A stretch of 64,000 bases of DNA from Candidatus Magasanikiibacteriota bacterium (GTDB taxonomy: Bacteria; Patescibacteriota; Patescibacteriia; Magasanikbacterales; UBA922), in assembly GCA_021648085.1 (NCBI GenBank), contig JAKITS010000001.1, positions 915,201 through 979,200 of the forward strand, written 5' to 3'. Made by a program: the position numbers and the translations under genes. Below, piece by piece: positions 1-28,538 of this stretch (positions within the stretch are counted from its first letter, which is position 1; the number at the start of each line of letters is the position of its first letter). The notes under the pieces are model-generated. The model was not told the origin of the DNA and ran no database searches. It saw nothing but the letters and a program-made list of their open reading frames with translations.

Positions 1-98
1 AATTTCTGGCTTTTTTATTTTGGGGATATTTTTTAGAGTTTTATTTTATTCTTTCTGTAATATATCTTGTTTTTTTATGGTATAATTAAATATCAGAT

Positions 99-258
99 GA
101 GACTATCTCAAAATATACTTTCATTATTAAAATTTCTAAATTTTGAGCGAGACGAAAAGAAAAAATTTTTGCTCAGCCTTAACTTCGGAAATATTTTTTC
201 TTGAAGTCGTAGCCAAAATTTTTATATTTTAATAGAAATGATGTTTTGAGATAGTCTT
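99..258 (+). repeat. Copy A of a conserved ~125-nt core element (three copies in this window, all + orientation). It is closed by a copy-specific perfect inverted repeat, agactatctcaaaa at 100..113 pairing with ttttgagatagtct at 244..257. It lies in the 5' leader of the SpoIID-like gene.
   Basis: Direct sequence comparison with 16742..16932 and 28282..28444. Shared core AAATTTCTAAATTTTGAGCGAGACAAAAAGAAAAAATTTTTG...CGGAAATATTTTTTCTTGAAGTCGTAGTCAAAAT...TTTTAATAGAAATGATGTT. Internal palindrome AGAAAAAAT/ATTTTTTCT. An extended -10 box TGGTATAAT sits upstream at 78..86. Confidence 0.75.
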
Positions 259-279
259 TAATCAAATTTAATCTTTTTT

Positions 280-2151
280 ATGATATCCTCAAAAACTATG
301 ATTTTTTTTAGAAATTTTTTTATATTTTTATTATTTTTAACACCTTTTATTTTTGTAAATGATGTGTTAGCAATAGACCATCCAACTATCCGAGACACAG
401 GATTTTCTGCAAAATATGTAGATCAATCTATTGGTGATCCTATAGTAATTCCAGCAGGAACAAGTGAAACTGTCACAATCCGATTTAAAAACACTGGTAC
501 AAAAGTGTGGTATGCTGGTGGATCTAATTTTATTTCTGCTTATACAATTGAGCCAAAATATCACGACTCATTATTTCGTGGTTCAAACTGGATTGGAAGT
601 GATCAGACTGCAACAATTTCTAAAGATACTTATCAAGGTCAAATTGGAGAGTTAAAAATAGACCTAATAGCTCCAAATAAAGTCGGGGAATACACAGAAA
701 AATTTTATCTTGCAGCAGAAAATTATAGTTGGGTTCGTGGAAGTTATTTCTTTTTAAAAATTAAAGTAATAAATGCTCCAGAAATACAAAAAGCAAAAAT
801 TACGCAAATTGAAAAAGTAGAAACTAAAGAGGAGGTTTCAACAACAATTTACAAAGCTCAGCGTTTTATTTTGAATAAACCAGAAATCACAGCAGTTGGA
901 GGAGAGCAAATAAAAATAATTTTGGGTTATCAAAATGTGGGGGAGTCTGCATGGCAAAATTATTCTTTTGTGGCTGGTGGCACAAGTGTGGCAAGTGGAG
1001 AATTTGCGTCTTTTGCAGATGCTAGCTGGCAAGACAAAAATACTATTTTACAAAAAAATAACCCTATTTCTTCTGGAGGAATTTTACGAGAGACTTTTTT
1101 TATGCGTGCTCCAGCAAAACAGGGAAATTATACTGCTAGATTTCAGTTGAAAGTAGATGGTACAGTATTGGGCGATGGAATTGTGGAAATTCCAATCACT
1201 GTCACATCCGATGCACCCTCACATTATGTTGAGCCAGTTCTTAGTGGGGAACCAATTGAAATTTACAGATTATCACAAGAACCTAGAATTCGTGTAGGGC
1301 TTTGGCGAGATGCAAATTTTGTTGAGTTTGTTTCTGATGAAGACAATTATAATGTTTTTGAAGGTACAGTTTTGATAGGTATTTTACCTCGCGGAACTCT
1401 TGCAAAAATGAGTTATTCTGCTGGAATTTATACTTTTAGCGGTGGTGGAATTTCTCTGAACACAAAAAATTATATTAGACTTGAGCCTATTTCAAATGAG
1501 CGTGCAGTTTTTACACTTCGCAATTATGAAAGGCAGGTTTCATGGAAAGGTCCTAGAAATTTCAATAAATATAGAGGAGCTGCAGAATATAGAGTGACAC
1601 AAGATGGCGCGAATGTTTACCTTATAAATGACGTTTTGTTTGAAGATTATACAGCTGGAATAGGAGAAACTACAAATTATGACAATGTAGAATACATAAA
1701 AGCTTTGTTAACTTCAGCTAGAACTTACGCATATTATATCCAGCAATATAGTAGTAAACATGATAAACGCAATTTTGATGTGGTAGCTCATACCGGCGAT
1801 CAGCTTTATCTTGGTTATTTGCACGAGACTTTGGCGCCAAAAGTCGCAGCCGCAGCTACTGCTACAAAAGGTTCAATTATAACTTACAATGGAACTCCAG
1901 TGATAACACCATATTTTGGAAACACAGATGGTAGAACTAGAGCATGGTCCGAAGTTTGGGGAGGTGAAAAGCCTTGGCTTGTTTCTGTAAAAGCAGACTA
2001 CGACCTTCGTGACGGCAAAAGTTTGTTTGGTCACGGAGTAGGTATGAGTCAACGAGACGCAGAAATCCGCGCCGACGAACTGGGATCTAGTTGGGTTGAT
2101 TTGGTTAAATATTATTATACTGGTGTAGAGGTGGAGAAGTTTTATAAATAA
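280..2151 (+). CDS. Secreted protein with N-terminal signal peptide, tandem Ig-like beta domains and a C-terminal SpoIID/LytB-like domain
   Basis: Hydrophobic N-terminus. The C-terminal region (…ARTYAYYIQQ…HTGDQLYLGY…PYFGNTDGRTRAWSEVWGG…) resembles the SpoIID/LytB amidase-enhancer domain. Confidence 0.55.
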   Translation: MISSKTMIFFRNFFIFLLFLTPFIFVNDVLAIDHPTIRDTGFSAKYVDQSIGDPIVIPAGTSETVTIRFKNTGTKVWYAGGSNFISAYTIEPKYHDSLFRGSNWIGSDQTATISKDTYQGQIGELKIDLIAPNKVGEYTEKFYLAAENYSWVRGSYFFLKIKVINAPEIQKAKITQIEKVETKEEVSTTIYKAQRFILNKPEITAVGGEQIKIILGYQNVGESAWQNYSFVAGGTSVASGEFASFADASWQDKNTILQKNNPISSGGILRETFFMRAPAKQGNYTARFQLKVDGTVLGDGIVEIPITVTSDAPSHYVEPVLSGEPIEIYRLSQEPRIRVGLWRDANFVEFVSDEDNYNVFEGTVLIGILPRGTLAKMSYSAGIYTFSGGGISLNTKNYIRLEPISNERAVFTLRNYERQVSWKGPRNFNKYRGAAEYRVTQDGANVYLINDVLFEDYTAGIGETTNYDNVEYIKALLTSARTYAYYIQQYSSKHDKRNFDVVAHTGDQLYLGYLHETLAPKVAAAATATKGSIITYNGTPVITPYFGNTDGRTRAWSEVWGGEKPWLVSVKADYDLRDGKSLFGHGVGMSQRDAEIRADELGSSWVDLVKYYYTGVEVEKFYK

Positions 2152-2208
2152 AAATTTCTTATTATTATTATGGTGTATAATATAAAAGTTATTAATTAAT
2201 TTAAAAAT

Positions 2209-2676
2209 ATGAAAAGTTCCTTAAGTTCTATAATAATTACAATTGTACTTACAACTTTAATTGTTGGAAGTGCTAGTTATTTAATATTTAATAAATCTGA
2301 AAATAACGAATGTTTTAAAACTTACCAAAAAGATAATATAAGCTTTGAATATCCTTGCGATTGGGGAAAAGATATAACAAATAAAGAAACTTTGGGTGAA
2401 ATAGGAACAGCAGTGGCTCCAGATGGTCAGGCATCATTTCAGTATCCTGCTATAGAAATAGGATTTTCATTTGGTACAGAATTAGTTAATGAGTTTAATA
2501 CAACAATTAATAATAAAAAATATCCAACTAAAAAATTTGAAGGTCTTGGTGTAACTTATCTTATTTTTGAAATGGGAACAGATGTTCATAAAAATGGATA
2601 TAATATTTCATATATTTATACAAATTCAGAACATGAAGATGATTTAAAACATATTATTGAAACCTTCAGGTTTTAA
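2209..2676 (+). CDS. Hypothetical small membrane-anchored or secreted protein
   Basis: ORF with an N-terminal hydrophobic segment. Followed by a bidirectional hairpin terminator. Confidence 0.4.
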   Translation: MKSSLSSIIITIVLTTLIVGSASYLIFNKSENNECFKTYQKDNISFEYPCDWGKDITNKETLGEIGTAVAPDGQASFQYPAIEIGFSFGTELVNEFNTTINNKKYPTKKFEGLGVTYLIFEMGTDVHKNGYNISYIYTNSEHEDDLKHIIETFRF

Positions 2677-2689
2677 ATAAAAAATTCAA

Positions 2690-2722
2690 AAAAAAAGAGC
2701 AGAATATTTCTGCTCTTTTGAC
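2690..2722. terminator. Bidirectional rho-independent terminator (agagcagaatatttctgctct flanked by A- and T-tracts)
   Basis: Perfect 7-bp stem between convergent ORFs, with an A-run upstream and a T-run downstream. Confidence 0.6.
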
Positions 2723-2726
2723 TTTT

Positions 2727-3272
2727 CTAAGCCGATTCAAATTTAACTTCAAAATAACCAGGACTTTCTACTTTTTTAGATATTTTAATCCAATGAGTCT
2801 CACAAATTATTTGTAGAAGAGCAAAAAAATCATTTTTATTTTGAACAAAATAGGCTGGAATTACACCTCTATTTCCCAATTCTATTTCTACGCAATTAAG
2901 AGCATCGTCTTTTTCAGGAATAATTTGGATAAGTTTTCTTTCTTCATCCCAAACTAATCCATTTTTATCCCTTATTACAAAATATTTATAATCATATTTT
3001 AGGCATAAAGTGCAGGCCCACCTTCCATGTCTTACATATGGCTTGTTTATACCCCTTCCAAGAGTAAAAGCCAAAAATTCTACAAATTGTTTGAAATGTG
3101 AAAAACTTTTAATAAAATCAATTTGCTTTTTTTTGTTTTTTATAAAATAAATATTTTGCCACAAACCATTTTCATAGTTTAATATTTCCAAACACTTTGT
3201 GTCCGGATAAAAAATAAATTTTGCGCCAAGCATTATGGCAGTTCTGCTACCTTTTTTTGTACATATACTCAT
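2727..3272 (-). CDS. Hypothetical protein
   Basis: 181-aa ORF with no recognisable motif. Confidence 0.35.
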   Translation of the reverse strand: MSICTKKGSRTAIMLGAKFIFYPDTKCLEILNYENGLWQNIYFIKNKKKQIDFIKSFSHFKQFVEFLAFTLGRGINKPYVRHGRWACTLCLKYDYKYFVIRDKNGLVWDEERKLIQIIPEKDDALNCVEIELGNRGVIPAYFVQNKNDFFALLQIICETHWIKISKKVESPGYFEVKFESA

Positions 3273-3362
3273 TTTCTCCTCCTTTTTATTGTAAAGGTAC
3301 TAATTTATTTGTACCATATATTAATTTTTTTTGTCAATAAAAAACTACTTTTTAAAAGTAGT

Positions 3363-4571
3363 TTATATTTGTGTAATTTTATCAGCTTTTTGAAGTTGAG
3401 GATGGTTGGTTACAAAATAATTTTTATCTAATCCTTTTAGGTTTATATATTGTATAAGGTTGTATACGGCATATTGTAAGGACATAATATCACCTGTGTG
3501 CGCTAATTCTGACGCTGTGTGCATATATCGAAGCGGTACACCAAGCGACATTGCTACTGTGTCTCTACCAACTTTTACACCAGAACTTGCATCTGTTCCA
3601 GTATCTCTTGAACATATAACAGTTTGATATGGAATTGACTTTTTCTTTGATTCTGTTATTAAAATATTATTTAATATTGGTGATATCATTGCACCACAAA
3701 CTACTGTGAAACCATTCCCAATTTCTGTCTCTGGAAAATTTCTCCAAAGTATGTTCGGGGTGTTTACATAGTCGTGACTTACATCAATTGCAATCAAAAT
3801 ATCGGGTTTAAAATTTTCAACAGCGACCATACTCCCATATCTACCAATTTCTTCTTGTGCGGAAATAGTAAAGAGTAGTTGAATATTTTCTAAATCTTGT
3901 ATTTTACTAAACATTTTAGCAAGTTGAACAACAGTAAAGCATCCAACACTATTATCTAAATATGGCCCAGAAAAAATGTTAGTAAAAAGTCTTTTTTCAA
4001 TTTTTCTATCAAAAATAATAGGATCTCCGGGTCGTATACCAAGGTTTTTTAGTTTATAATCAGCATGACTTCCATAAACACCAAGCTCCAAATATAAAGC
4101 AGAGCTAGAAACGCCTTTTTTTCCAGAAATTAGAGATTGACTTGCTAAATGTATTGGCGGAATTCCTTCTATTGTGCCATAAAAAACATTAAATTCTTTT
4201 GGATTATCTGGTTTACGGCTAAAAAGTTTGACTTTGTTAGATATAAGAGATGTTGGTAAAAAAGAAGAGCTTGATATTTTGATTTTTCCGTCAGCTTCTA
4301 TATGTTTTACTTGAAGTCTAATTTTATCAGAATGTCCAACCAACATTATTTTTAAAGGATTACTTTTTTTGCGTTCTGTTTTTAAAACAATTCCAGCATT
4401 TCCAATAAAACTATGAATAGTCCAGCTTTTTTTATTTTCTGTAATTAGTTTTTTAAAAATTGGGTGTATAACCCCGTAAGTTAATGCACCTTCCAAATTA
4501 CTTGGGCTTGGTGCTTCTGCAATTTTTTGTAATAAGAAAAAATCTTCTTCCGACATTTTTTTAATGAGCAT
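3363..4571 (-). CDS. M42-family (FrvX/TET-like) metallo-aminopeptidase
   Basis: Motifs GHSDKI, AQEEIGRYG and IAIDVSHDY resemble the M42 metal-ligand motifs (HxD, EE, D..H). Confidence 0.55.
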   Translation of the reverse strand: MLIKKMSEEDFFLLQKIAEAPSPSNLEGALTYGVIHPIFKKLITENKKSWTIHSFIGNAGIVLKTERKKSNPLKIMLVGHSDKIRLQVKHIEADGKIKISSSSFLPTSLISNKVKLFSRKPDNPKEFNVFYGTIEGIPPIHLASQSLISGKKGVSSSALYLELGVYGSHADYKLKNLGIRPGDPIIFDRKIEKRLFTNIFSGPYLDNSVGCFTVVQLAKMFSKIQDLENIQLLFTISAQEEIGRYGSMVAVENFKPDILIAIDVSHDYVNTPNILWRNFPETEIGNGFTVVCGAMISPILNNILITESKKKSIPYQTVICSRDTGTDASSGVKVGRDTVAMSLGVPLRYMHTASELAHTGDIMSLQYAVYNLIQYINLKGLDKNYFVTNHPQLQKADKITQI

Positions 4572-4628
4572 TCGACCCTCCTTTGTAGGTTTCTATTTTA
4601 TTTTTAACATATTCTTATGTCTTGTGTC

Positions 4629-4660
4629 AAAAAAACCTTGGGTTTAACCCAAGGTTTTTT
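4629..4660. terminator. Hairpin terminator downstream of recA (aaaaaaccttgggtttaacccaaggtttttt)
   Basis: Perfect 9-bp GC-containing stem flanked by A6 and T6, immediately 3' of the recA stop on the minus strand. Confidence 0.7.
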
Positions 4661-4663
4661 ATA

Positions 4664-5722: not shown

Positions 5723-5741
5723 ATTTCCAATATTTATGGTT

Positions 5742-5790
5742 AAAAAAAGAGGATTAATTAAGGACTTTTAATAAAGCCCAAACCCTCTTG
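5742..5790 (-). terminator. Minus-strand hairpin plus T-tract terminator downstream of the RodZ-like gene
   Basis: On the minus strand, aagaggg…cctctt is followed by T7. Confidence 0.4.
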
Positions 5791-5826
5791 ATGATAGTGT
5801 ATTCGTTTTATTTTTGTATGTCAAAT

Positions 5827-6546: not shown

Positions 6547-8815
6547 TAATTTTTATATCTACACTTTCTTGATTTTTGACTTCTTCTTGAAAAATATTAA
6601 GCTCGGCACCGGTATCATTTGTTTGTGGAATATTAGAAATTTCTTCCTGACTCAGTGGAACTTCTGCTATGCTTGTGTCGACTAATATATCACGAGGTTT
6701 TGAGCCTTGTTGTGGCCCTATTATTCCAGCGTCTTCTAACTCATCCATAAGCCTTGCTGCGCGAGCATAACCAACGCGCAGTCTTCTTTGTAGGTACGAG
6801 GCACTAGCTTTTCCCGCTTCTATTACTAATTTTTTTGCATCGTCAAAAAGTAAATCTTTTTTGTGTCTAGATCCTCCACCAAATGAGTTTGTTTTTCCAT
6901 CTCCATCGCCTTCGTCATCTTTTGAAATTATGTTTGAGTCATAAATATTTTCTCCTTCTACTTTTAAGAATTTTACAACATTTTTTAACTCTTCTTCAGA
7001 GATAAAAGCTCCTTGAATACGAACGGGTTTTGAAAGGTCGGCTGTTTGTAAAAGCATATCTCCTTTTCCGACTAGTTTTTCAGCCCCAGGAGAATCCAAG
7101 ATTGTGCGAGAATCAATAAGTGAAGCCACAGAAAAAGCAATTCTACCAGGGATATTTGCTTTCATAAGACCAGTAATAACATCTACGCTTGGTCTTTGTG
7201 TTGCGACAATTAAGTGAATTCCTACAGCTCTAGCCATCTGTGCCAAACGAATAATTCCAGACTCTACCTCGTTCGCTGCAGTTGCCATAAGATCAGCAAG
7301 CTCATCTACAATAAAAACTATATGCGGTAATTTTGTGTCCGGGTGTTTCAAATTGTAAGAAGTAATGTCTCTATTTCCTGCTTTTGCAAGAGTTTCAAAA
7401 CGCCTATCCATTTCGTTTATTGTCCAGCGAAGAGCGTTTACAGTGTCTTGAGTATTCGTTATTACAGGTGTCAAAAGATGGGGAATTCCATTATAAAGAG
7501 TAAGTTCTACTCTTTTTGGGTCAACCATAATCATACGAAGTGTTTCTGCTGTGTTTTGAAAAAGTAGACTCATTATAACTGTGTTCATACATACAGTTTT
7601 TCCAGATCCTGTAGAGCCTGCTATCAAAAGATGTGGCATCTTTGGTAGATCAGCAAACCAAACCTTACCACCCACATCTTTTCCAAGTGCTATCATCATT
7701 CCATGTTTTCTTGCTTTAAAAATCTTACTTTCTAATAACTCTCGAATACTCACTAGTGCTGCTTTTTGGTTTGGAACCTCTATCCCAACCAAAGATTTTC
7801 CAGGTATTGGAGCTTCAATTCTAATGGGATGAGCGGCCAAAGCAAGTGCCAAATTGTTTGTAAGAGATGCAATTTTAGAAAGCCTTACTCCGCGTGCGGG
7901 TGTAAAAGAGTATTGAGTGACTGTTGGTCCAACACGAACTTCTCCAATTTCTACATTTACTCCAAAATCGCTAAGTGTTTCTTGAATAATTCTAACATTT
8001 AATTTTATATCTCCGCTTGTCGGTTTTCCTTTTCTAGTGGTTAAAAGTCGAATTGGTGGCAAGTCTTTAATTACAACTTTTTGACCCCATGACTCATCTT
8101 CGGGTTTTTTTTCTGGTTTTGCAAGAAGCTCTTCTTTACTTTTTATCTTACGAGCCAGAAAATTACCAACACGACTTTCATTATCACTTTCTGTACTTCC
8201 TTCTTTTCCGTACATTCCATTTATTTTTATATCATCTTTTTTGGGCTTGCTTTCAAAAAACTCTGCACCACCAATAGTATTTTTGCCGATAGATCCTACA
8301 CTTCCCAAAGCTTTTCTATTTAAGTGTATAAAATAGACTATACTTGTGTTGAAAAGTAGTAAAAGCGAAACACATACAAAGCCTATTAATAAAATTAAAC
8401 CCGCGGTATTGCCTAAGTATGTTTTTAATGGCCAAGCAAACATTCCAAAAATACCTCCACCTTCTCCGTCTAATGCTTTTAGCCACATCTGACTTGCATC
8501 AAATTTTAAATGAAGTAATCCGGCGGTAGATAAGAAAAATAAAAAAGCACCAATTCCATGAGTTGTTTTGTAGTTGTATTCTACATCTTTTACAAAAAAC
8601 CAGGCTAAAATTGCCAGTACAATAGGTACAAAGTATCTGGAAAATCCAAATAGTGAGCTTAAAATCCATTTATCTATTATAATTCCGACTGTTCCAGCAT
8701 TTTGAAAAAAACTTAAAGTAACAATTATTGCTAAAACTAAAATAAGAATCGCAATAATACCGCGAGATAAGTTGGGATTAAAGGCGTCTATCTGTTGCTT
8801 TTTCTTTCTTGGCAT
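6509..8815 (-). CDS. ftsK: DNA translocase FtsK/SpoIIIE
   Basis: N-terminal polytopic membrane region. Walker A GSTGSGKTV and Walker B IVDELADL in the motor domain. C-terminal gamma-like winged helix. Confidence 0.9.
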   Translation of the reverse strand: MPRKKKQQIDAFNPNLSRGIIAILILVLAIIVTLSFFQNAGTVGIIIDKWILSSLFGFSRYFVPIVLAILAWFFVKDVEYNYKTTHGIGAFLFFLSTAGLLHLKFDASQMWLKALDGEGGGIFGMFAWPLKTYLGNTAGLILLIGFVCVSLLLLFNTSIVYFIHLNRKALGSVGSIGKNTIGGAEFFESKPKKDDIKINGMYGKEGSTESDNESRVGNFLARKIKSKEELLAKPEKKPEDESWGQKVVIKDLPPIRLLTTRKGKPTSGDIKLNVRIIQETLSDFGVNVEIGEVRVGPTVTQYSFTPARGVRLSKIASLTNNLALALAAHPIRIEAPIPGKSLVGIEVPNQKAALVSIRELLESKIFKARKHGMMIALGKDVGGKVWFADLPKMPHLLIAGSTGSGKTVCMNTVIMSLLFQNTAETLRMIMVDPKRVELTLYNGIPHLLTPVITNTQDTVNALRWTINEMDRRFETLAKAGNRDITSYNLKHPDTKLPHIVFIVDELADLMATAANEVESGIIRLAQMARAVGIHLIVATQRPSVDVITGLMKANIPGRIAFSVASLIDSRTILDSPGAEKLVGKGDMLLQTADLSKPVRIQGAFISEEELKNVVKFLKVEGENIYDSNIISKDDEGDGDGKTNSFGGGSRHKKDLLFDDAKKLVIEAGKASASYLQRRLRVGYARAARLMDELEDAGIIGPQQGSKPRDILVDTSIAEVPLSQEEISNIPQTNDTGAELNIFQEEVKNQESVDIKINEQIDNPYDEEQ

Positions 8816-8939
8816 AAAATTATAATGGTTTGTCTGCGTATTAGGTTGTGCTATAATATAGAATAAATAAATTATATCATAGGAATCATCTTAATAAAAC
8901 ATCTTTAAAGTAGTTTTTACTAAAACGGTCTGTGTTTAT

Positions 8940-8968
8940 TTGACAAAATTAAGATAATAGTATATAAT
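8940..8968 (+). promoter_or_regulatory. Consensus sigma70-type promoter (TTGACA, 17-bp spacer, TATAAT) about 350 nt upstream of rpoB
   Basis: TTGACA at 8940..8945 and TATAAT at 8963..8968, read directly from the sequence. Confidence 0.55.
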
Positions 8969-9319
8969 TATGTTCGCTTTTATTTTCACTTATTTTTGTC
9001 GTTTATTTTCGATGAAATTAAGTGTAAAGCAAGGGTAATGACCGCTTTAAAAAATCTACGCCAAACGATAACAAATCGTGAGTGCGCGGGTTATTGCACG
9101 GGAGTGTACAAAAGTAGGAAACCATGCAACAAATCGAAAGAGGGATAAATTAAAAGTAATTAAGAGCGTTCTTAAGTAAAGAGCGTATTTTTTGTTAATT
9201 AAATAAGGAAATTTAGTATAAAAAATTTGACTTTTTCAAATTTTTACATTTTTTAAATCATAACACACTTAGATTTTTCATTCCAAAGAAAATTCTATTA
9301 ATTGTTTCTTATAGGAATT

Positions 9320-12300
9320 ATGCCAATATACAAGAGACAGCCATTAAAGACAAAACAGCGTAAATTTTTTACAAAATTTAGCTCTAGTTTACCTGTTCCA
9401 GATCTTATTCAGGCTCAAAAAGATTCTTACAGTTGGTTCTTAAGAGAGGGTATCAAAGAACTTTTCGAGGAGGTTTCTCCTATTAACGATTTTACAGGTC
9501 GTGATTTAGAGCTTTATTTTGAAGACTATTTCATAGATGAGCCAAAATTTGATGAAACAACTTGCCGAGAAAAGAATATTACTTTCGAGGCTCCACTTCG
9601 CGCTACAGTTAAATTATTAAACAAAAGAACAGGAAAATCAACTAAACAGGAGATTTACCTTGGGGATATGCCACTTATGACAGAGCGTGGCACTTTTGTA
9701 GTAAATGGAATTGAGCGTGTTGTAGTTTCACAACTTATCAGAAGTCCGGGAGCATTTTTTACAGCAACCAACCTTCGCGGACGTCGTTTTTATGGTGCAA
9801 AAATTATTCCAAATCGTGGAGCTTGGGTTGAAATTGAAACAGACCAAAACAATGTAATCTGGGCAAAAGTAGACAGAAAACGAAAAATAGCTGTAACAGC
9901 ACTTTTGCGTGCTTTTGCAGGTCTTAACGATGAACAAATTATAGATTTGTTCAAAGATGTAAATAATCATCCAACGATAGACTTTATTGAGAATACTTTG
10001 AAAAAGGATGTATCTTCAAACGAAGAGGAAGGGTTGATTGAAGTGTACAAGCGTATTAGACCGGGTGATTTGGCTACAGCAGACAATGCAAAAAGTCTTA
10101 TACATTCAATGTTCTTCAATTTCGAAAGGTATGATTTAAGTAAGGTTGGTATTTATAAATTTAATACCAAGTTTAATCTTGGTTTAAAGGATAAAGATTT
10201 TGAAAAGAAAGAAAATCGTATTTTATCACCAGAAAAATTGACATCTGTTATAAAAGAAATAATTAGACTTAACATCACTCAAGAAGAGCCTGACGATATT
10301 GACCATTTGGGAAATAGGCGTGTGCGTGCTGTTGGAGAATTAGTGCAAAATAGATTTAGAGTAGGTCTGTCAAGAATGGAGCGTATTATTAGAGACAGGA
10401 TGAGTACTTATGAACTTATCAAGCTATCTCCAAATAAACTTGTAAATGCCCGTCCAGTTATTGCTTCTGTACATGAGTTTTTTATGAGTGCACAGCTTTC
10501 ACAGTTTATGGATCAAGTAAATCCTTTGGCAGAATTGGAACATAAGCGTCGTATTAGTGCTTTGGGGCCAGGTGGACTTTCTCGTGATAGAGCGGGATTT
10601 GAGGTTCGCGATGTGCACACAACTCATTACGGTCGTGTTTGTCCAATTTCTACTCCAGAGGGACCAAATATTGGTTTAGTTGGACATTTGGCAACATATT
10701 CAAAGATAAATAGTTTTGGATTTTTAGAGACACCTTATAGAAAAGTTATAAATGAGGTTCCAAATGAGGCTCGTTTTACAGAAGATGAGGTTTCAGCAAA
10801 AACTATAAAAGGAATTGTAGAAAGTGGTGAAAAAATTACAAAAACAATCGCTAAAAAACTAGCGAATACAAAAGCAAAAACTATAAAAGTAAAACCTCGT
10901 GTAACAAATGAAGTTGTATATTTAAATTCTTTTGAAGAGGAGCGCACAGTGACAGCTAGTGCTACAACACCAGTAGACGGAGATGGCTTTATTTTGGGAG
11001 TTCGTATTCCAGCGCGTGCTTATTCAGAGTCCACTATTGTAAAAGTGGAAGATGTTAATTATTTAGATGTTGCTTCAAATCAGATTTTAAGTGTTGCAAC
11101 AAGTCTTATTCCTTTCTTGGAGTACGATGATGCTACGCGTGCATTGATGGGGTCAAATATGCAGAGGCAATCTGTACCTTGTATTACTCCAGACGCTCCA
11201 CTTGTGGGAACTGGGATGGAAAAAGATGCCGCAAAAAATAGCGGATATGTTATACACGCACAAGCTACAGGAGAGGTGACTTACTTAGACGGAGATAAAA
11301 TTGAGATTACAAGTTCAAAAGGTGAGGTTTATACTCATAAATTGAAAAAGTATGTGCGTTCAAATGTTTCAAGTTGTATCAATCAAAGACCTGTTGTAAG
11401 GTTGGGAGATAATGTTAAAAAAGGAGAGTCACTTTGTGATGGACCGTCAATAGAGAGTAGTGAGTTGGCTTTGGGACAAAATGTATTGGTTGCGTATATG
11501 ATGTGGGATGGATTCAATTATGAGGATGCTATCATAATTTCTGAAAGACTTGTTCAGTCGGATAAGTACTCCTCAGTTCATATTGAAGACTATAAATTGG
11601 ATATTCGTGATACAAAACTTGGGCCAGAGTTGGTGACAAGTGATATTCCAAATGTAAGTGAAGAAAAATTAAAGAATTTAGATGCCGAAGGTGTTGTTCG
11701 TGTTGGAGCAGAAGTCCATTCTGGTGATATTTTGGTGGGTAAAATTAGTCCAAAAGGTGAGACAGAACTTTCTCCAGAAGAAAGACTTCTTCGTGCAATT
11801 TTTGGTGATAAAGCTAGAGATGTTCGCGATTCTTCTCTTTATCTAGAACATGGAGACAAAGGAAAGGTAATAGATGTAAAAGTATTTTCAGCAGAAGAGG
11901 GGGATAAATTGCAGGCTGGAGTTGTAAAACAGGTTCAAGTGACTGTAGCAGATATGCGTAAAATTCAGGTTGGAGATAAGATGGCTGGTCGTCATGGAAA
12001 TAAAGGTGTTATCGCTCGTGTTGTTCCTGTAGAAGATATGCCTTTCTTGGAAGATGGAACACCAGTTGATATTATCCTTTCACCGCTTGGAGTTGTATCT
12101 CGTATGAACTTGGGACAGCTTCTTGAAACTCATCTTGGTTTAGCTGCGAATGCACTTGGTTATAAAGCTGCTATCCCTACTTTGGATGGAATTCCAGAAG
12201 AAGTAATTCAGGGAGAGCTTAAAAAAGCAGGTTTTCCAGAAGATGGACAACTACAACTTCACGATGGTAGAACAGGTGAACTATTTGATCATAAAACAAC

Positions 12301-12709: not shown

Positions 12710-12722
12710 TAAAAATAAATTT

Positions 12723-16724: not shown

Positions 16725-16741
16725 AACTACTTTAAAAATAC

Positions 16742-16932
16742 AAAAAACCTTGTTAAGGGTCTATCTAAAAATACGCTTTCGTTATTTAAATTTCTAAATT
16801 TTGAGCGAGACAAAAAGAAAAAATATTTGCCCAGCCTAAGCTTCGGAAATATTTTTTCTTGAAGTTGTAGTCAAAATTTGGAGATTTTAATAGAAATGGT
16901 ATGTTTAGATAGGCCCATCAGCAAGGTTTTTT
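16742..16932 (+). repeat. Copy B of the conserved ~125-nt core element. Inner closing inverted repeat gggtctatctaaa (16758..16770) pairs with tttagataggccc (16904..16916). An outer terminator-like arm aaaaaaccttg…caaggtttttt also pairs.
   Basis: Direct alignment with copies A and C. Located between the rpoC stop and the 991-aa repeat-protein gene. Confidence 0.75.
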
Positions 16933-16990
16933 GTTATTTAATTTTTTTATATGGTAATATATAAAACATAAACAAATTCATATATTTTTT

Positions 16991-19966
16991 ATGAGAGAAT
17001 ATAATAGAGAACAAGAAAATGAAATTAAAGAATTGGCGGTGAGTGAGGCTGAGGAAGCAGAAATTCACACTGAATTAGAAAAAAAAGCTTATTTACAAAA
17101 AATAGAAGATATTTTCAAAGCACAAAAACTAAAAAAATATGAATATGAATATGAATATTATAATAATCTAAAAGATAAGTTGTTTAAAACTATTGATAAT
17201 TATGAAGGAGATAAAAATGATATTTATTTATATATTTTAGATAAAGAGGTGTATTTTTTTAAAGAATCTTTTTTATTTGACGAAAGAGTCCAGGATTTGA
17301 ATAGTACAGTTGCAAATAAACTTTGTGAGTTTAGTGGAGGTTATAATAATATTGAAAGTAATCGAGATAAATTTCAAAATTTAAATTATAAAGACATTGC
17401 AAACAGACTTATTAAATCAGACCAAGGTTATGTGCTTGCAAATAACCTAGAAAAATTCCAAGGTTTAGATCATCAAGACATTGCAAACAGACTTATTAAA
17501 TCAGACCAAGGTTATGTGCTTGCAAATAACCTAGAAAAATTCCAAGGTTTAGATCATCAAGACATTGCAAATAGACTTATTAAATCTAATAATGTATGGC
17601 CTTTAGTAAATAACCTAGAAAAATTTAGAGGATTAAACCATCAAGAATTAGCAAATAAACTTATTAAACCTAATAATGCTGAGTTTTTAGTAAAAAATTT
17701 AGAAAAATTCCAAGGTTTAGATCATCAAGACATTGCGAGCAAACTTATTGAAAATGCACAAATAGATTTGCTTATAAATAATATAGAAAAATTCCAAGGT
17801 GGTTTAAACACAGTATCACAAGGATTTCAACAAAATGCACAAACAAATTTTGGTGGTAAAAAAGAAGATTATAAAAAGATTTTTGAAAATCAAACTCCAC
17901 CGCACGATATGGAAAATCAATTATTAGAGGAATTTTTAAGAAAATATGGTAGTTTTTTACAAAATTTTAATGAATTAAAAGAAGCACAAAACATTTCCGA
18001 AGAAGATAAAAAATATCTTGAATCTGGAAAATTTGGAGAAGAATTTTTAATTCCTGTTTGTAATTCTCAAAGTGTTGGAAGTTTTCGGTTTTTGGATTTT
18101 ACATCAAAACTTATTGAATTTGAAAGAGTTATTTCAGAAAAAGATTTTTCTTTGTTAAGTGAAATTGCTATAAGACAAGGAATAAGAGCAATAGAAACAA
18201 TGGATTTTTTAACAAAACAACATGGTAAATACAATGAGTCATTATCAGAAAATAAAAACTTAAAAGAATTCATATTTTCTGGTTTACCAACTATACAAGA
18301 TATATATAAAGAATATTTATCAATTATAGAAGATGATTCACTCACAGATTTGGAGAGAAAAACAGAATTGAATAATCTTAAAGAAAAAGTTTTGAAAATA
18401 CAAGGGCAAATAATAAAAGGTGGAGGTGAAAATTCTGAAAATAAAGAAGATGAGAAAATGTTGGTTGGTTTAACTTACGATGTTTTTTCACCAGCTTCAT
18501 CTATAGGAAGGGCGCAATATGAAAACCTGTTGAGTAGAAGAGAGGATAGGACAAAAGATATCCCACAAGAATTAATGGATTTAAACAAAGAAACAAAAAT
18601 AACAGCTGTATATAAAAAATTTGGATTTTGGAATTTAAAAGAAGGTGAAAAAACCGACTTTACTTTACCAGAAAAATATACTGGTTTTATTGATAAAATA
18701 AATAAAACCGCAAAAGAGAAAAAAGAGGAAAATAAAGATTGGCGTGCGGAATATGTAAAACTTGCGCAACAACTTTTGCGAACAAAAAAAATTAATTGGA
18801 AAGAAAAAAATGAGGTTTTCCAAGATATTTATAGACTTATTGCAAGCGGAGCTGTTCCTGGAGTTGCAGGAATTGAAAAAAAGGGAGATACTTTTGAAGA
18901 TAACAAACAATTGTTAGATTTGGTTGGTGATAAATTTAAAGATGCTATTGATATTGCACTCAAAACATACAAAGAAGAAAATCCAGAAGAATATGAAAAA
19001 GATGTAGATATTGCTACAAAACTTGTGATAAATAAAAAAGCAAAAAAAGGAATAGTAAAAAGTATGGTGGGAGTTTTGAAACAGTATACTCGCGTGCCAA
19101 AACATAAAATATTTGATGAGGATACAGACAGGTTTGTAAATAGTAAAATAAAAAGAATATTGAAAAAATATAGTATTCATTTTGAAGGGGATATATTGAG
19201 TGAACTTGTAAATAATGAAAAATTGATGGAAAGTGTGGAGAAAATAGATGTCGAAATAGGTGAAAATGAAAAAACAGAAGATATAAAAGCGAGAATGGAA
19301 GCAGAGACAATGGAAATGGAACAAATTTTAAAAGAGTACTTTCAAGAAAAACTATTGAATGCAGAAATGAATCGTAATGCAGGAAAACTTTCTTCAGAAT
19401 TGGCTGGTAAATTTTTTGGTGAAGAAAAAAATAAACTGCAAGATGATATTTCTAAATATGAATTTGTAGAAGGTGGAGGTGGATCTGGAAAACCTTTGCG
19501 TTTGGAAATATCAAAACACAAATTGCACAGTGTAGCTGGTTTAAATATGGGAGTTTGTGTAGCAGTGGACGAAAAACTTTGGAACAAAGAAACTTTTATG
19601 AATGTAATTTTGTGGGACGATGAAATTAAGAAATCTCAGGGAGGAATGCATTTTGAAATTGTAGAAGATAAAGGTGAAAAGTATCTTAGTTTACCTGGAA
19701 TAAATCCAACTCCAAAATTACTTGCTTCTGCAAATCCAGAAAGTATATATGATCAAATGATAGAATTTGCAAAAAAATCCGCAAAAGCAATTGGTGCAAA
19801 AGGAGTGTTGATTCCTACTCGTGGAGAGATACATTCAAATCGTGCGGAAATACATAAAATTGTGCAAGATAAAAAATATCCAGTTCATAGTTTAGAAAAT
19901 AGTCATGACTTTTCATATAAACCTTATATTTATTCTTGGAAGGATACTTATTTTATAGAAGTATAA
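16991..19966 (+). CDS. Large K/E-rich hypothetical protein with about five tandem 28-aa repeats (DIANRLIKSDQGYVLANNLEKFQGLDHQ)
   Basis: ORF of 991 aa with 84-bp DNA tandem repeats. No signal peptide is apparent. Confidence 0.6.
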   Translation: MREYNREQENEIKELAVSEAEEAEIHTELEKKAYLQKIEDIFKAQKLKKYEYEYEYYNNLKDKLFKTIDNYEGDKNDIYLYILDKEVYFFKESFLFDERVQDLNSTVANKLCEFSGGYNNIESNRDKFQNLNYKDIANRLIKSDQGYVLANNLEKFQGLDHQDIANRLIKSDQGYVLANNLEKFQGLDHQDIANRLIKSNNVWPLVNNLEKFRGLNHQELANKLIKPNNAEFLVKNLEKFQGLDHQDIASKLIENAQIDLLINNIEKFQGGLNTVSQGFQQNAQTNFGGKKEDYKKIFENQTPPHDMENQLLEEFLRKYGSFLQNFNELKEAQNISEEDKKYLESGKFGEEFLIPVCNSQSVGSFRFLDFTSKLIEFERVISEKDFSLLSEIAIRQGIRAIETMDFLTKQHGKYNESLSENKNLKEFIFSGLPTIQDIYKEYLSIIEDDSLTDLERKTELNNLKEKVLKIQGQIIKGGGENSENKEDEKMLVGLTYDVFSPASSIGRAQYENLLSRREDRTKDIPQELMDLNKETKITAVYKKFGFWNLKEGEKTDFTLPEKYTGFIDKINKTAKEKKEENKDWRAEYVKLAQQLLRTKKINWKEKNEVFQDIYRLIASGAVPGVAGIEKKGDTFEDNKQLLDLVGDKFKDAIDIALKTYKEENPEEYEKDVDIATKLVINKKAKKGIVKSMVGVLKQYTRVPKHKIFDEDTDRFVNSKIKRILKKYSIHFEGDILSELVNNEKLMESVEKIDVEIGENEKTEDIKARMEAETMEMEQILKEYFQEKLLNAEMNRNAGKLSSELAGKFFGEEKNKLQDDISKYEFVEGGGGSGKPLRLEISKHKLHSVAGLNMGVCVAVDEKLWNKETFMNVILWDDEIKKSQGGMHFEIVEDKGEKYLSLPGINPTPKLLASANPESIYDQMIEFAKKSAKAIGAKGVLIPTRGEIHSNRAEIHKIVQDKKYPVHSLENSHDFSYKPYIYSWKDTYFIEV
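17393..17812 (+). repeat. Intragenic 84-bp tandem repeat array. Two copies are perfect (17393..17476 and 17477..17560) and about three are diverged.
   Basis: Identical 84-nt strings read directly. Downstream units diverge at both the nucleotide and protein level. Confidence 0.85.
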
Positions 19967-19981
19967 ATTACTTTTTAAAAC

Positions 19982-20012
19982 AAAAAACCTTGTTAATTAC
20001 AGGGTTTTTTGT
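19982..20012 (+). terminator. Rho-independent terminator (aaaaaaccttgttaattacagggtttttt)
   Basis: Hairpin plus T-tract. It shares the aaaaaaccttgtt motif with the outer arm of element copy B. Confidence 0.55.
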
Positions 20013-20055
20013 TATGTTAAATTAGGATTTAGTATTATAAATTAATATTTATTTT

Positions 20056-20784: not shown

Positions 20785-21039
20785 GGAAGTTGGGAAAGTT
20801 GAAAATCTGTATTACCATTTCCGACTCGATCAGGAATCCAGAGTTTACAAAACAGAACTATGGTACAAACCCTGGATCCCCAATCAAGTTGGGGATGACA
20901 GGAGGAAATATGAGATATGATATAAATTTTCATATTTTTTTCAAGTGAAGCGATTTATCAAGAAAAGCATGGCTTTTCGATTCACCAAAAGAGCGAAGCG
21001 ACTGATCCATCAAGCGTTAGCGATACATCATTTTTATTT

Positions 21040-21555: not shown

Positions 21556-21619
21556 TTATTTTGAAATAAGTTCAATTATTGTGTTATACTAAATACGGAT
21601 CCTTAAAAAGGAGGCTGTA

Positions 21620-21895: not shown

Positions 21896-22142
21896 CTGTC
21901 AAAATAAGTCATTTTTGAGTTTTCTTTAAAATTATTATTAAAGTAGACTTCAGAGTGATTTATAGGCAGTTTTTGTTTGACAAATTATCATTTTTCTGTT
22001 ATAGTTTGATTATTAAATTACTGCTTTTTATAAGGAGTCTTTAACAAATATAATAATGTTATATTTGTCAAAGATTCTCTATTCAGAAGCGCGGACCTAT
22101 GTGGACATGCCCGCACAGAGCCCGTTAAAAGTATGCATGGTT

Positions 22143-22442: not shown

Positions 22443-22448
22443 AATAAA

Positions 22449-23012: not shown

Positions 23013-23174
23013 ATTAATTATAGATGGTCTAGAAACAAATAGATCCCTAAAAAACTTTTTAAGTTTTTCGTTGAGGGTCTGTAGTATCTAGATCATCTCT
23101 TGGGAATATCAGCAAATACCATTTCAATAACGAAAGCGTATTTGGCGACATTCCCGTTAGAAAATAAAAATACT

Positions 23175-25388: not shown

Positions 25389-25396
25389 CCTTCTAA

Positions 25397-25432
25397 AAAC
25401 AAAAAACAACTCATTTGTGGGTTGTTTTTTTG
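25397..25432 (+). terminator. Rho-independent terminator after pnp
   Basis: aaaaaacaactcatttgtgggttgttttttt: stem caactca/tgggttg (one G-U pair) plus a T-run. Confidence 0.55.
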
Positions 25433-25519
25433 TTTTGTACATAGTTTTATTTAGTCTACTTATTTTTCATAGTTTGATGTCTTTTTATGGTATAATAAAA
25501 AAGAATTTATTTTTTTGTT

Positions 25520-26965
25520 ATGTCGAAAAGAGAGGTTATTATAAAAACAAGAGATATCGCTGTTACTTATTTTATGGGTAAAAGCAATGAAGTAAAAGCT
25601 CTAAAAAAAATGTCTTTAGAAATTTATAAAGGCGAATTTGTTATTTTTTTTGGTCCTTCTGGTTGTGGAAAATCTACACTTCTTTATTCTATTGCGGGTT
25701 TAGAGCGTCAAGCTACGGGCGAGGCAATAATACAAGGTAAAGATGTTGTGAAGATGACTAATAAAGATTTGGAAAAACACTATCAAAAAACTATTGGTAT
25801 GATTTTTCAAGCTTTTTATTTAATACCTTCTCTTTCTGTTTTGCAAAATGTAATGATGCCTCAGATTGCTATTGGAGTAAGCCCAAAAAAAAGAAAAAAG
25901 AAAGCCTCAGATCTTTTAGAATATTTTGGAGTAGGACCTCAGTCAAGTAAATTGCCAACTGAGCTTTCTGGTGGACAGCAACAGCGAGTGGCTATTAGTA
26001 GATCTCTTGTAAATGATCCAGATATGATTTTGGCAGATGAACCTGTGGGAAACCTAGACTCAAAGTCTGCTGCCGATGTGCTTAGTTTGATTCAAGAGAT
26101 GAACAGAAAACAAAAAAAGACTGTTATTTTAGTAACGCACGATCCTACACATTTGGATATTGCAGACAGGGTTTTTTATTTGAAAGATGGTGCGTTAATT
26201 GATGTGAAAGAAAATAAGAATCCGCGCGTGATTCACAGAATTGGTAAGAAAACTAAAGAAGATAAAGAGCTTAAAAAAGAAAAAAGTAATCTAGAATTAA
26301 TATCTAAAATATACTCAAAAAATACAAAAAAAATAGATGGAATGCTTTTGGAATATAAAGCTAAAGAAATTTTACTAGAAGTTTTAACAGGAATGAATAG
26401 TAGGCAGCTTTTAGTTTTAGAGGAATACACAAAACAAATGATTAAAACAGGTGTAGATGGTAAGAGTGAAATGTATGAATATTTGGACAAAGATTTTGAA
26501 AATGGTGGTGCAGATTTGGATAGTCGTACAGCAAAAGAAATATCAAAAAAAGTAAAAGATATTGTTTCAGAAATGAGGATTGTTTCAGATTCAGATAAGA
26601 TAGAAACCTCAAAACCAATAGAAACATATGTAAAGCAGATAAGATATTATTTGTTGGAAACTTTTGATGTTCAAGTAAATAGTACAGAAAGTTTAGATGC
26701 AATTGACTATATTTTGAAAGACAGGGTTCAGGGTGTAACAGACAAAAAAGGTGTTTTTAAAATGTTAGATTTAGATTTGGAGCACGGTGGTGCGGGATTA
26801 AATAAAAGAACTGCAAAAAAAATTGCAAAACGATTAGAGTTGGTTTTACTTGGAAAATATACAAGAAATAAAAAACGAGAAAAAGAGTTATTAAAAGCAC
26901 AAAAAGAAGAAAGAAAAAAGCATAAAAAAGAAAAAGATACTAAAGAAAAAAAGAATAAATTATAA
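25520..26965 (+). CDS. ABC transporter ATP-binding protein (LolD/MacB-ATPase-like) with a ~250-aa C-terminal extension carrying two repeated modules
   Basis: Walker [10 protein letters not shown], signature LSGGQQQRV and Walker B ILADEP. The C-terminal extension contains repeated LD.D.E.GGA.L..RTAK(K/E)I.K modules and a KE-rich tail. Confidence 0.8.
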
Positions 26966-26968
26966 GCT

Positions 26969-28174
26969 ATGAGACTTTCCGACGCTTTGTCGTTATCCAC
27001 AAGAATGTTTAGAACAAGACCACTTAGAACATTATTAACAGTAATGGGTGTTGGTGTTGGTATTGGAACTGTTCTATTTTTGGTCTCACTTGGTTACGGT
27101 CTGCAAGACGCTGTATTAAGTCGTATTACAACGGCAGACGCTTTACTTAGTTTAGATGTTGCACCAGGAAGTTCAGAGTTAATTACTTTAAATAAAGATG
27201 TAATTGATAAAATAAAAAAAATTCCAAATGTGGAAGAGGTCAGTCCTGTGATTTCTGCTTCTGCACAAATAAGTTTAGAAAATTTGGTTGGAGACGGAAC
27301 AATGTATGCTGTCAAACCATCATACTTTAGATTAAGTGGAGTGGATACAATTTTAGGGGATTTATTTGAGAATAATACTGATGAAAATCCAAAAGCAATA
27401 GTTTCTTCCGCGGCTGTTCAGTTATTCAATATGAACCCAGAAGATATCTTAGGAAAGGAGTTTAATTTAAGTTTTTTTATTCCACGCATAGATGGCGAAG
27501 GTGTGGAGCATTTGGAAATTGTAGATAAGGATACAATGTATTCTATTGTTGGTGTTGTGGCTGATGACTCAGAAAGTTTTGTTTATATCCCTTTGGCTTC
27601 GGTAGAAAGTGTCGGAATAGAAAATTTTTTAGAAACAAAAGTAAAAGTCTCTAGTATAGAAGCAATGGACAATATACGACTTGAAATTGTGGAGATGGGT
27701 TTTTTTGTTTCTGCACTTAAAGATGTAATTGAAGATGCACAAAAAATATTTAGCATTGTACAATTAATTTTAGGTTTGTTTGGTTTGGTGGCACTTACTG
27801 TTTCTGCTATCGGAATGTTCAATACAATGACAGTTATGCTTTTGGAGCGTACAAATGAAATAGGTATTATGAGATCAATCGGCGTCACTCGTAGAAGCAT
27901 TAGAACTTTATTTATTGTTGAGGCAATGCTAATGGGATTTTTGGGTGGGCTTGGAGGTGTTGGTATTGGAATTTTAGGTGGAGAAATTTTTAATTTTATA
28001 ATAAATATTTTGGCAAAAAATTTGGGTGGTGAATCTGTTGACTTGTTTGTAAGCCCATTTTGGTTTATTGGTGTTATTATTTTTTTCTCAACTGTTATTG
28101 GTTTTATGACTGGTGTTTTTCCTGCCAGGCGTGCAGCCAAATTAAACCCATTAGATGCACTGCGTTACAAATAA
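26969..28174 (+). CDS. ABC transporter permease, FtsX/MacB-like
   Basis: N-terminal TM, a large extracytoplasmic domain and three C-terminal TMs with an FtsX-like topology. Directly downstream of the ATPase gene. Confidence 0.75.
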   Translation: MRLSDALSLSTRMFRTRPLRTLLTVMGVGVGIGTVLFLVSLGYGLQDAVLSRITTADALLSLDVAPGSSELITLNKDVIDKIKKIPNVEEVSPVISASAQISLENLVGDGTMYAVKPSYFRLSGVDTILGDLFENNTDENPKAIVSSAAVQLFNMNPEDILGKEFNLSFFIPRIDGEGVEHLEIVDKDTMYSIVGVVADDSESFVYIPLASVESVGIENFLETKVKVSSIEAMDNIRLEIVEMGFFVSALKDVIEDAQKIFSIVQLILGLFGLVALTVSAIGMFNTMTVMLLERTNEIGIMRSIGVTRRSIRTLFIVEAMLMGFLGGLGGVGIGILGGEIFNFIINILAKNLGGESVDLFVSPFWFIGVIIFFSTVIGFMTGVFPARRAAKLNPLDALRYK

Positions 28175-28205
28175 TTTTTTATATATAAAATTGCAAGTAA
28201 TTAAG

Positions 28206-28234
28206 TTGACAGAATACTTTATTTAGTATATAAT
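28206..28234 (+). promoter_or_regulatory. Consensus sigma70-type promoter (TTGACA, 17 bp, TATAAT) driving element copy C and tRNA-Leu
   Basis: TTGACA at 28206..28211 and TATAAT at 28229..28234, read directly. Confidence 0.6.
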
Positions 28235-28281
28235 ATACCCGCCCAATTTAGGTGGGTATTTAAAATAGGTTGTTTCAAGTA

Positions 28282-28444
28282 GGGAATAATTTTCAAAAAT
28301 GCTTTCCATTATTAAAATCTTTAAATTTTGAGCGAGACAAAAAGAAAAAATTTTTGACTAGTCATATCTTCAGAAATATTTTTTCTTAAAGTCGTAGTCA
28401 AAATCTAAATATTTTAATAGAAATGATGTTTGGAAATTATTCCC
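28282..28444 (+). repeat. Copy C of the conserved ~125-nt core element. Closing inverted repeat gggaataattttcaaa (28282..28297) pairs with tttggaaattattccc (28429..28444). It ends 9 nt upstream of tRNA-Leu.
   Basis: Direct alignment with copies A and B. The variable central loop contains the palindrome TGACTAGTCA. Confidence 0.75.
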
Positions 28445-28452
28445 ACAAAAAG

Positions 28453-28533: not shown

Positions 28534-28538
28534 CTAAA

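Follow-up and report, generated by a model that had tools for sequence, protein, structure and literature searches.

The 64,000-nucleotide (nt) stretch analysed here, referred to as the window, covers positions 915,201 to 979,200 of contig JAKITS010000001.1 from a Candidatus Magasanikiibacteriota bacterium. It contains six members of a family of short palindromic sequences, which very probably are transposable elements of the miniature inverted-repeat type (MITEs). Three of these, copies A, B and C, lie on the same strand and had been noticed in a reading of the sequence alone. Their places were confirmed by a three-way alignment, which gives a common core, and by motif counts: with up to one mismatch allowed, the window has exactly three matches to each of two core motifs (29 and 32 nt), whereas shuffled sequences have none. 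Copy A is located in the 5′ leader of a SpoIID-domain gene and begins 12 nt downstream of an extended −10 box, copy B occupies the loop of the rpoC intrinsic terminator, and copy C lies in the leader of a tRNA-Leu (ARAGORN), downstream of a promoter that scores 12/12 (Table 1). The promoters upstream of A and C, the terminator-like hairpin around B and the tRNA-Leu leader had all been pointed out in the sequence-only reading, and all of them hold. Each of the three copies folds as a single rod hairpin, with RNA minimum free energies of −54.8 kcal/mol for A (z −9.0; the opposite strand is ~10 kcal/mol weaker), −82.2 kcal/mol for B including the terminator arms (z −13.4) and −49.1 kcal/mol for C (z −8.5). 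The terminal repeats of copy A are GAGACTATCTCAAAA / TTTTGAGATAGTCTT, while the 5′ closing repeats of copies B and C read GGGTCTATCTAAAAA and GGGAATAATTTTCAAAAA. No open reading frames (ORFs) of at least 90 aa are listed within the full-length window copies.

Genomes of the Patescibacteria, or Candidate Phyla Radiation (CPR), are about 1 Mb in size and highly streamlined, and the organisms are mostly uncultured. The window was compared with related Magasanikbacteria loci (labelled L001-L078), species-representative genomes and metagenome contigs. The rpoC product of the window is 100% identical over 99% of its length to a protein of a contig named Candidatus Magasanikbacteria. The closest relative beyond the host is L001, with a rpoC product that is 86% identical and a contig that is syntenic with window positions 994-23693. 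At four-fold degenerate sites of rpoC the two are 62% identical, compared to a chance expectation of 40%, which indicates that unconstrained DNA is far diverged between the two genomes. A scan of the species-representative genomes with a 21-nt core pattern yielded 21 copies on 19 contigs of one relative metagenome-assembled genome (MAG), which belongs to the same species as L001; six of these 19 contigs break off within the element. The metagenome scan added ~50 further copies, whereby 12 of 59 pattern matches, as well as L003, were discarded as chance matches in unrelated, mostly GC-richer DNA. Orthologous sites were compared for copies B, C and D, for the copy at 23102-23155 and for the rpsO site; the site of copy A lies outside the loci compared. 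Two features of the compared sequences deserve mention. Loci L002 and L004-L021 (GenBank CAZHUL01...) are titled "uncultured Gammaproteobacteria bacterium", a label that looks wrong because these contigs are AT-rich (GC 0.29-0.34) and syntenic with the window and L001. In L001, rpoB (6585-9973) is called as two ORFs of 710 and 435 aa, where the window has a single 1135-aa ORF, a difference due to a frameshift or to misassembly.

Run on the window, a covariance model of 17 copies recovered three more members, and over 60 copies are known from relatives and metagenomes. The diverged copy D begins 6 nt 3′ of the tRNA-Leu; its 77-nt arms are 78% complementary, and it folds at −60.6 kcal/mol compared to −42.3 kcal/mol for the other strand. 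The tRNA-Leu sits between copies C and D, at 8 and 6 nt and with the two in inverted orientation (28283-28694). This layout resembles a composite bounded by two MITEs; L036 has the upstream member only. The 54-nt copy upstream of the polynucleotide phosphorylase gene has one mismatch to the 28-nt consensus end. The weakest match (22034-22078) is the hairpin that comes first in the rpsO (S15) leader, and the orthologous position in L001 and L043 holds a full-length subfamily-2 copy with homologous arms. Its outer arms recur at L004, L012, L034, L039 and L071, and since they match the subfamily at several unrelated loci, this hairpin is regarded as an apex-deleted family member and not as a host hairpin. 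The same match rules it out as a virgin target for the full-length copy of L001.

Table 1 Positions of the family members and of other features in the window (bits are covariance-model scores)
Feature	Position	Strand	Description
Copy A	99-258	+	160 nt, full length; 153.9 bits
Copy B	16757-16916	+	160 nt, full length; 165 bits
Copy C	28283-28443	+	161 nt, full length; 133.5 bits
Copy D	28541-28694	-	Diverged full-length copy, subfamily 3, 154 nt; 59.6 bits, E 8e-10
Apex-deleted copy	23102-23155	-	54 nt, GGGAATGTCGCCAAATACGCTTTCGTTATT / GAAATGGTATTTGCTGATATTCCC; 40.4 bits
Apex-deleted subfamily-2 copy	22034-22078	+	22 bits, E 0.05 (weak)
rpoC terminator hairpin	16742-16932	+	Arms AAAAAACCTTG (16742-16752) / CAAGGTTTTTT (16922-16932)
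Duplicate unoccupied terminator	19982-20010	+	AAAAAACCTTG-TTAATTA-CAGGGTTTTTT, downstream of 991-aa ORF
Extended −10 box	78-86		TGGTATAAT
SpoIID-domain gene	280-2151
991-aa ORF	16991-19966
Promoter upstream of copy C	28206-28234		TTGACA-17-TATAAT
tRNA-Leu	28452-28534
Promoter of 23S + 5S	29008-29036		TTGACA-17-TAAAAT
23S rRNA	29312-32258		Extra blocks at ~29598-29658 and 29689-29710
5S rRNA	32467-32573
Inverted repeat around 5S	32446-32471 / 32568-32593		26 nt
tRNA-Ile	39662-39735		Anticodon UAU
Other repeat sequences	20816-20901, 59263-59392		Short, GC-richer

Element ends, insertion sites and mobility

The consensus terminal repeats of the family, found in more than 60 copies from related Magasanikbacteria genomes and metagenomes, are GGGACTGTCGCCAAA...TTTGGCGACAGTCCC. 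Most aligned copies start with GGGACTGTCGCCAAAYAC and finish with GTGTTTGGCGACAGTCCC, so the element unit spans GGGAC... to ...GTCCC, and the end type of the family can be written as GGGACTGTCGCC. The inverted repeats that close copies A, B and C had been described as completely different from one another. They are rather diverged versions of one consensus end: when aligned, they correspond position for position, both among themselves and to the consensus, and every difference in the 5′ arm is matched in the 3′ arm. Furthermore, in near-consensus copies of relatives, target-site duplications sit directly outside the corresponding repeats, which identifies the closing helix as the terminal inverted repeat of the element itself. 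Full-length copies measure 152-165 nt. The inner core, TTTTGAGCGAGAC...GTCGTAGCCAAAA, is conserved and includes a 2x3 internal loop and an A6/U6 stem, while some subfamilies have a different core (L012:186).

A sign of mobility, seen in near-consensus copies of the relatives, is a 5-bp duplication of the target. Among the first 28 insertions, 6 have perfect duplications (5/5) and 10 match at four or more of the five positions (permutation p < 5e-5, 0/20,000), and among 61 unique insertions these numbers rise to 20 and 29. The duplicated sequences vary and are AT-rich, with ATTAT, TTTAT, GAATA, ATTAA, AAAAG, TTGTA, AACTA and CTATT among them. TTTAT is the commonest, being one among many, and the target motif is roughly W-T-W-A-W. 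The rpoC terminator of L001 is empty (AAAAAACCTTG-ctaaatg-CAGGGTTTTTT, with a 7-nt loop and without element; L001 14010-14045), and the window itself has a second, unoccupied terminator as empty-site control for copy B within the same genome. Copy D is missing from the orthologous L036 site, and the 54-nt copy is precisely absent in L001 and L043, so that filled and empty sites are found in both directions. An empty site for L002:7263 was sought in the window, where synteny breaks at that point.

Shortened and nested copies are found as well. Forms of 73-74 nt are joined at one place, an AAAATTT direct repeat, whereas the junctions of shorter forms (67, 54 and 45 nt) lie elsewhere; half copies are also present. 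A 319-nt composite, in which the apical loop of a consensus member holds a diverged member in antisense orientation, occurs on the reverse strand of L031 (1893-2211) and of L069 (3037-3355). As these are two different insertion sites, the composite itself seems to have moved. Upstream of the composite, L031 also contains a series of repeats of ~50-115 nt with a spacing of ~190 nt.

All copies are intergenic. With respect to the neighbouring genes, the 61 insertions comprise 23 in sense and 20 in antisense orientation, 11 that lie between divergent genes and 7 between convergent ones. A bias toward the sense orientation was rejected on the overall numbers (23 vs 20), old copies showing a non-significant trend (10 vs 5). 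A strong promoter motif is found 0-21 nt upstream of seven copies, among them L051 3876-4034, L041 2990-3148, L015 5510-5669 and copy A of the window (78-98), and in two of the seven the duplicated ATTAT forms the end of an extended −10 box (TGnTATAAT). It thus seems that promoter −10 boxes are preferred as targets. The proximity to promoters, which is enriched, fits the AT-rich target preference.

Bacterial MITEs are generally smaller than 200 bp, at most ~400 bp, and carry no transposase gene (PMC3184786). The family agrees with the description in that review in its size below 200 bp, the lack of a transposase gene, terminal inverted repeats, target duplications, dispersed copies that vary in presence and absence, and a long RNA stem-loop; the autonomous partner with similar ends that belongs to the description was not found in the related loci, viral contigs and plasmids searched. 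The best explanation, which we hold with considerable confidence, is that the sequences form a ~160-bp palindromic, non-coding and non-autonomous MITE family of the Candidatus Magasanikbacteria clade. It is a previously undescribed family of a well-known kind of element, and no descriptions of MITEs in Patescibacteria/CPR were found in the literature searched. The element inserts in intergenic regions at AT-rich 5-bp targets, which it duplicates, in either orientation, often landing just past a promoter and sometimes in a terminator loop or in another copy, and copies decay by truncation and by loss of the hairpin apex. According to this model, it would be mobilised in trans by a DDE-type transposase making 5-bp staggered cuts. 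Inserted copies would be co-transcribed with their neighbours, as in the SpoIID-gene leader, the rpoC terminator, the leader and trailer of the tRNA-Leu and the rpsO leader, and in each transcript the copy is predicted to form a rod of ~58 base pairs. In old copies this rod is kept paired by compensatory substitution, the outermost 12 bp drifting while the core stays.

Pairing and strand polarity

In 54 distinct copies, 95.8% of 3122 cells are standard pairs. A test of covariation had been called for on the basis of the first three copies, and covariation proves strong: 28 of the 58 pairs are changed on both sides, compared to 17.5 +/- 2.0 in shuffles and at most 16 in slid controls, and the number of doubly changed cells is 186 vs 40 in shuffles. 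The 17-copy set gives the same picture. The outermost 12 bp are the most variable and the inner core is the least variable; this core is in part the search pattern and as such ascertained, and its unascertained 3′ partner is equally conserved.

Two comparisons between species point in the same direction. Copy C and the copy at L036 are preceded by the same conserved promoter and leader and followed by the tRNA, and are probably orthologous, judging from these flanks, the alternative being independent insertion at the same spot. Their outer stems are only 50-56% identical, whereas the rest is 81-83% identical, for which the 62% identity at rpoC four-fold sites, measured with L001 as a genome of that clade, serves as benchmark. 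Ten pairs are changed on both sides and still paired, and the one single-side change also leaves the pair intact. For the rpsO pair (window vs L001), direct reading gives at least one compensated change (C-G vs T-A).

The two strands of the element are not equivalent. Orientation can be set by sequence, GAGCGA marking the 5′ half and GTAGCC the 3′ half. Of 53 copies oriented in this way, 49 have the more stable fold on the plus strand, with a mean advantage of 11.6 kcal/mol. Mismatch cells of the G:T type outnumber those of the A:C type by 137 to 51, while among private mismatches of single copies the ratio is reversed (21 A:C vs 5 G:T). This is the pattern expected if A:C is purged and G:T is tolerated. 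The plus-strand polarity is kept even in very diverged subfamilies. It could stem from a single strand, RNA or DNA, that is functional, from strand-biased deamination or from inheritance from master copies.

We infer that the plus-strand hairpin is constrained as a single-stranded nucleic acid. The constrained form is most likely an RNA that acts as a passive stem, for instance as a 5′ or 3′ stabiliser, a terminator extension or a substrate for a double-strand-specific RNase, which are roles that have been proposed for bcr1, ERIC and Correia elements. A requirement of the hairpin for mobilisation is less likely.

Objections and alternative explanations

Several observations weigh against the MITE reading. 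The six copies of the window itself are without recognisable target duplication (1-3 of 5 matches), so that the transposon origin of these copies rests on family membership and empty sites. Related sequence (~600 kb), viral contigs and plasmids yielded neither an autonomous element nor a transposase with ends that match. Furthermore, the polarity is equally strong in sense- and antisense-inserted copies and is thus independent of the direction of host transcription, which simple selection on host transcripts would leave unexplained, and the covariation between the ends is not explained by a transposase that binds double-stranded ends alone, taken by itself. Part of this covariation comes from amplified master copies with matched arms, as copies A and B share a CTATCT variant, and hairpin-templated mismatch correction could give matched arms without selection. 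In addition, a conserved internal sigma-70-type promoter does not occur above chance in the element copies.

The searches for an autonomous partner took several forms. Viral contigs, scanned for the core and for the end sequence, yielded zero matches and one chance match in a GC-rich phage. A blastn comparison of plasmids to the consensus gave nothing beyond matches of 27-37 nt (E 0.04-0.4), none of them end-like, and a search of related loci for unpaired ends or long-range end pairs gave only the truncated relics L002:1493 and L019:6736. Pfam detected no transposase in the ten largest unassigned ORFs of related loci, and no RAYT/TnpA gene was present among the large ORFs tested in these loci, which is a limited set. 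The 991-aa ORF beside copy B was considered as a transposase, but this is unsupported by Pfam, NCBIfam, PADLOC and PDB sequences. This ORF is missing from the syntenic L001 and has a sub-threshold match to a ParB-like nuclease in Pfam only (E 0.014). It is flanked by two rpoC terminator copies, the upstream one carrying copy B and the downstream one being empty, which looks as if an insertion had brought about the duplication of the terminator.

An alternative that we consider unlikely is that the element is more than a decaying MITE, namely a mobile structured module in which selection acts on the hairpin formed by one particular strand. This could take two forms. The element may be self-transcribed, or an RNA module, whose conserved asymmetric internal loop (GC-GA-GAC / GUC-GUA-GC) and A6/U6 stem would bind a host factor; or a single-stranded hairpin intermediate may be recognised by its shape and still give 5-bp duplications, a combination that, to our knowledge, has not been described. 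If true, such a module would explain together the end covariation, the transcription-independent polarity and the apparent retention of copies in the tRNA-Leu and rpsO leaders across species.

The sequence-only reading had offered a structured RNA with a closing helix supplied by the flanks as one of two explanations. The conserved structure stands, given the strong covariation, while the helix turned out to be the element's own end. In a wider form, the copies would be structured non-coding RNA genes or cis-regulatory RNA modules duplicated at several loci, with a functional core and an outer helix that only has to pair. This would suit the covariation with its G:U intermediates, the contrast between core and outer stem in the L036 comparison with its synonymous benchmark, the fixed strand polarity, and the fact that copies A, B and C are all sense and downstream of promoters. 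It is at odds with variable 5-bp duplications directly outside the ends, with clean empty sites and random orientation over 61 insertions, with the occurrence of nested, truncated and apex-deleted forms, with contig breaks at the element, and with the differing core of some subfamilies and the lack of a conserved promoter. Rfam leaves the element unmatched at the gathering threshold, at which the window gives only 23S, 5S and two tRNAs; at relaxed thresholds the best match reaches 33 bits where 90-230 are required, all matches being generic long-hairpin models of plant microRNA precursors. A conventional RNA gene or sense-only cis-regulator does not agree with dispersed, polymorphic copies in either orientation. 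Taken alone, the RNA module is largely refuted by the target duplications and the random orientation, and we regard it as improbable.

The second explanation offered at the outset was a mobile element that inserts preferentially into hairpins, of which the mobility is borne out by duplications and empty sites and the hairpin targeting is not. Here, a shorter mobile core would insert into the loops of pre-existing hairpins and the closing helices would be host sequence. Copy B in the rpoC terminator loop and the member within the apical loop of another at L031/L069 can be read in this way, as can the 73-74-nt forms, which lack exactly the AAAATTT-bounded segment and could be sites before insertion of a core with a 7-bp duplication. 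However, the variable helices align to a common end with 5-bp duplications outside them, the same outer arms recur at unrelated loci within each subfamily, and the several apex junctions (74, 67, 54 and 45 nt) are expected of deletions and not of one empty acceptor. Virgin hairpins that match occupied outer arms, without family similarity among themselves, were not seen in relatives. Moreover, for the 29 insertions whose duplications are good, complementarity between the flanks does not exceed that of permuted ones (2.72 vs 2.86 of 8, p = 0.74) and the reconstructed empty sites fold no better (p = 0.15), which rules out a preference for hairpin loops as targets and makes this explanation very improbable. 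Copy B and the L031/L069 nesting are consistent with AT-rich loops as ordinary targets of a MITE.

IS200/IS605 and REPIN mobility is not known to leave a target duplication. Movement of the palindrome by a single-strand-specific HUH-type enzyme, as for REP/REPIN-RAYT or IS200/IS605-derived elements, would agree with a hairpin polarity independent of host transcription, with covarying ends that make shape recognition conceivable and with the GTAG tetranucleotide in the conserved core, but is hardly credible given variable 5-bp duplications that mark staggered double-strand cutting, a length of 160 nt, far above the 20-40 nt given for REPs (PMC3733652), and the lack of RAYT or TnpA in the limited set of loci examined.

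Related elements and other observations

The closest analogues of the Magasanikbacteria MITE family are bcr1 of the Bacillus cereus group and the Tn3-derived TIMEs. Tn3-family ends probably have only the leading GGG in common with the ends of the element. The bcr1 element is ~155 bp, non-coding and intergenic, with a distribution that varies between related strains; it has 5-bp direct repeats, is transcribed, maintains double-stranded RNA by compensatory changes and has no known cognate transposase (PMC3184786; PMC6542083). The likeness thus extends to length, patchy intergenic distribution, 5-bp repeats, compensated pairing and the failure to find a transposase. On the other hand, bcr1 has a fixed TTTAT motif and a fold of two stem-loops, whereas the Magasanikbacteria element has variable duplications and a single rod. 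The two also differ in host phylum and in sequence, insofar as blastn gave no relevant match to plasmids, those of Bacillus included, the bcr1 consensus itself not being part of the comparison.

Tn3-family elements and TIMEs generate 5-bp AT-rich duplications in A+T-rich targets (PMC4133298), and TIMEs are non-autonomous elements with terminal inverted repeats, two copies of which can bracket and mobilise the intervening DNA (PMC4133298; PMC3184786). The duplication is shared with the element described here, and the bracketing resembles the layout of copy C, tRNA-Leu and copy D. In contrast to TIMEs, no Tn3-family transposon with matching ends was found in related loci, viral contigs or plasmids, and the element is a near-perfect palindrome over its whole length with covariation between the arms. 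Since the length and AT-richness of the duplication match the products of Tn3-family enzymes, a member of this family is our best guess for the mobilising enzyme, by analogy.

Other known families are less similar. Correia/NEMIS (Neisseria), ERIC/IRU (Enterobacteriaceae), RUP (S. pneumoniae) and RPE (Rickettsia) are multicopy intergenic elements of 100-170 bp with inverted terminal repeats, which form long stem-loops when transcribed and can affect neighbouring genes through promoters, protein-binding sites or RNA processing and stability (PMC3184786). Their typical known duplication is TA and not 5 bp, their sequences are unrelated to the Magasanikbacteria element, and RPE can lie inside genes, whereas all copies of the present family are intergenic. 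REP, BIME and REPIN sequences are likewise extragenic palindromes, often transcribed at gene ends, that keep structure over sequence. REPs are GC-rich, carry a GTAG or CGTC tag and are mobilised by RAYT enzymes. With a REP size of 20-40 bp (PMC3733652), REPs and REPINs do not fit an AT-rich element of 160 nt with 5-bp duplications and no RAYT gene in the ORFs tested.

That the family has dozens of copies and has recently expanded in one lineage, with no transposase visible, implies active or recently active transposition in these reduced genomes. The element explains why assemblies of these genomes fragment at particular points. Copies in leaders and terminators of core genes (rpoC, rpsO, tRNA-Leu) can mimic riboswitches or small RNAs in covariation screens, and because copies may be mistaken for RNA candidates, a covariance model of the family is useful as a mask. 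The two apparently orthologous copies that span species and have compensated stems provide a test case for selection versus hairpin-templated repair of MITE hairpins. What we consider worth following up is limited to the structural conservation, the polarity of the strands and the missing transposase.

Some further observations concern other parts of the window. The short sequences at 20816-20901 and 59263-59392 match the flanks of element copies at several loci (L040, L045, L046, L078; L004, L010), which means that the clade has at least one more dispersed repeat family. The 23S and 5S rRNA genes have their own promoter and no 16S upstream, the extra blocks in 23S being relative to the Rfam model, and the inverted repeat that brackets 5S is probably a processing stem. 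Finally, a tRNA-Ile with anticodon UAU, an uncommon bacterial way to read AUA, is conserved in L002 (3154-3227).

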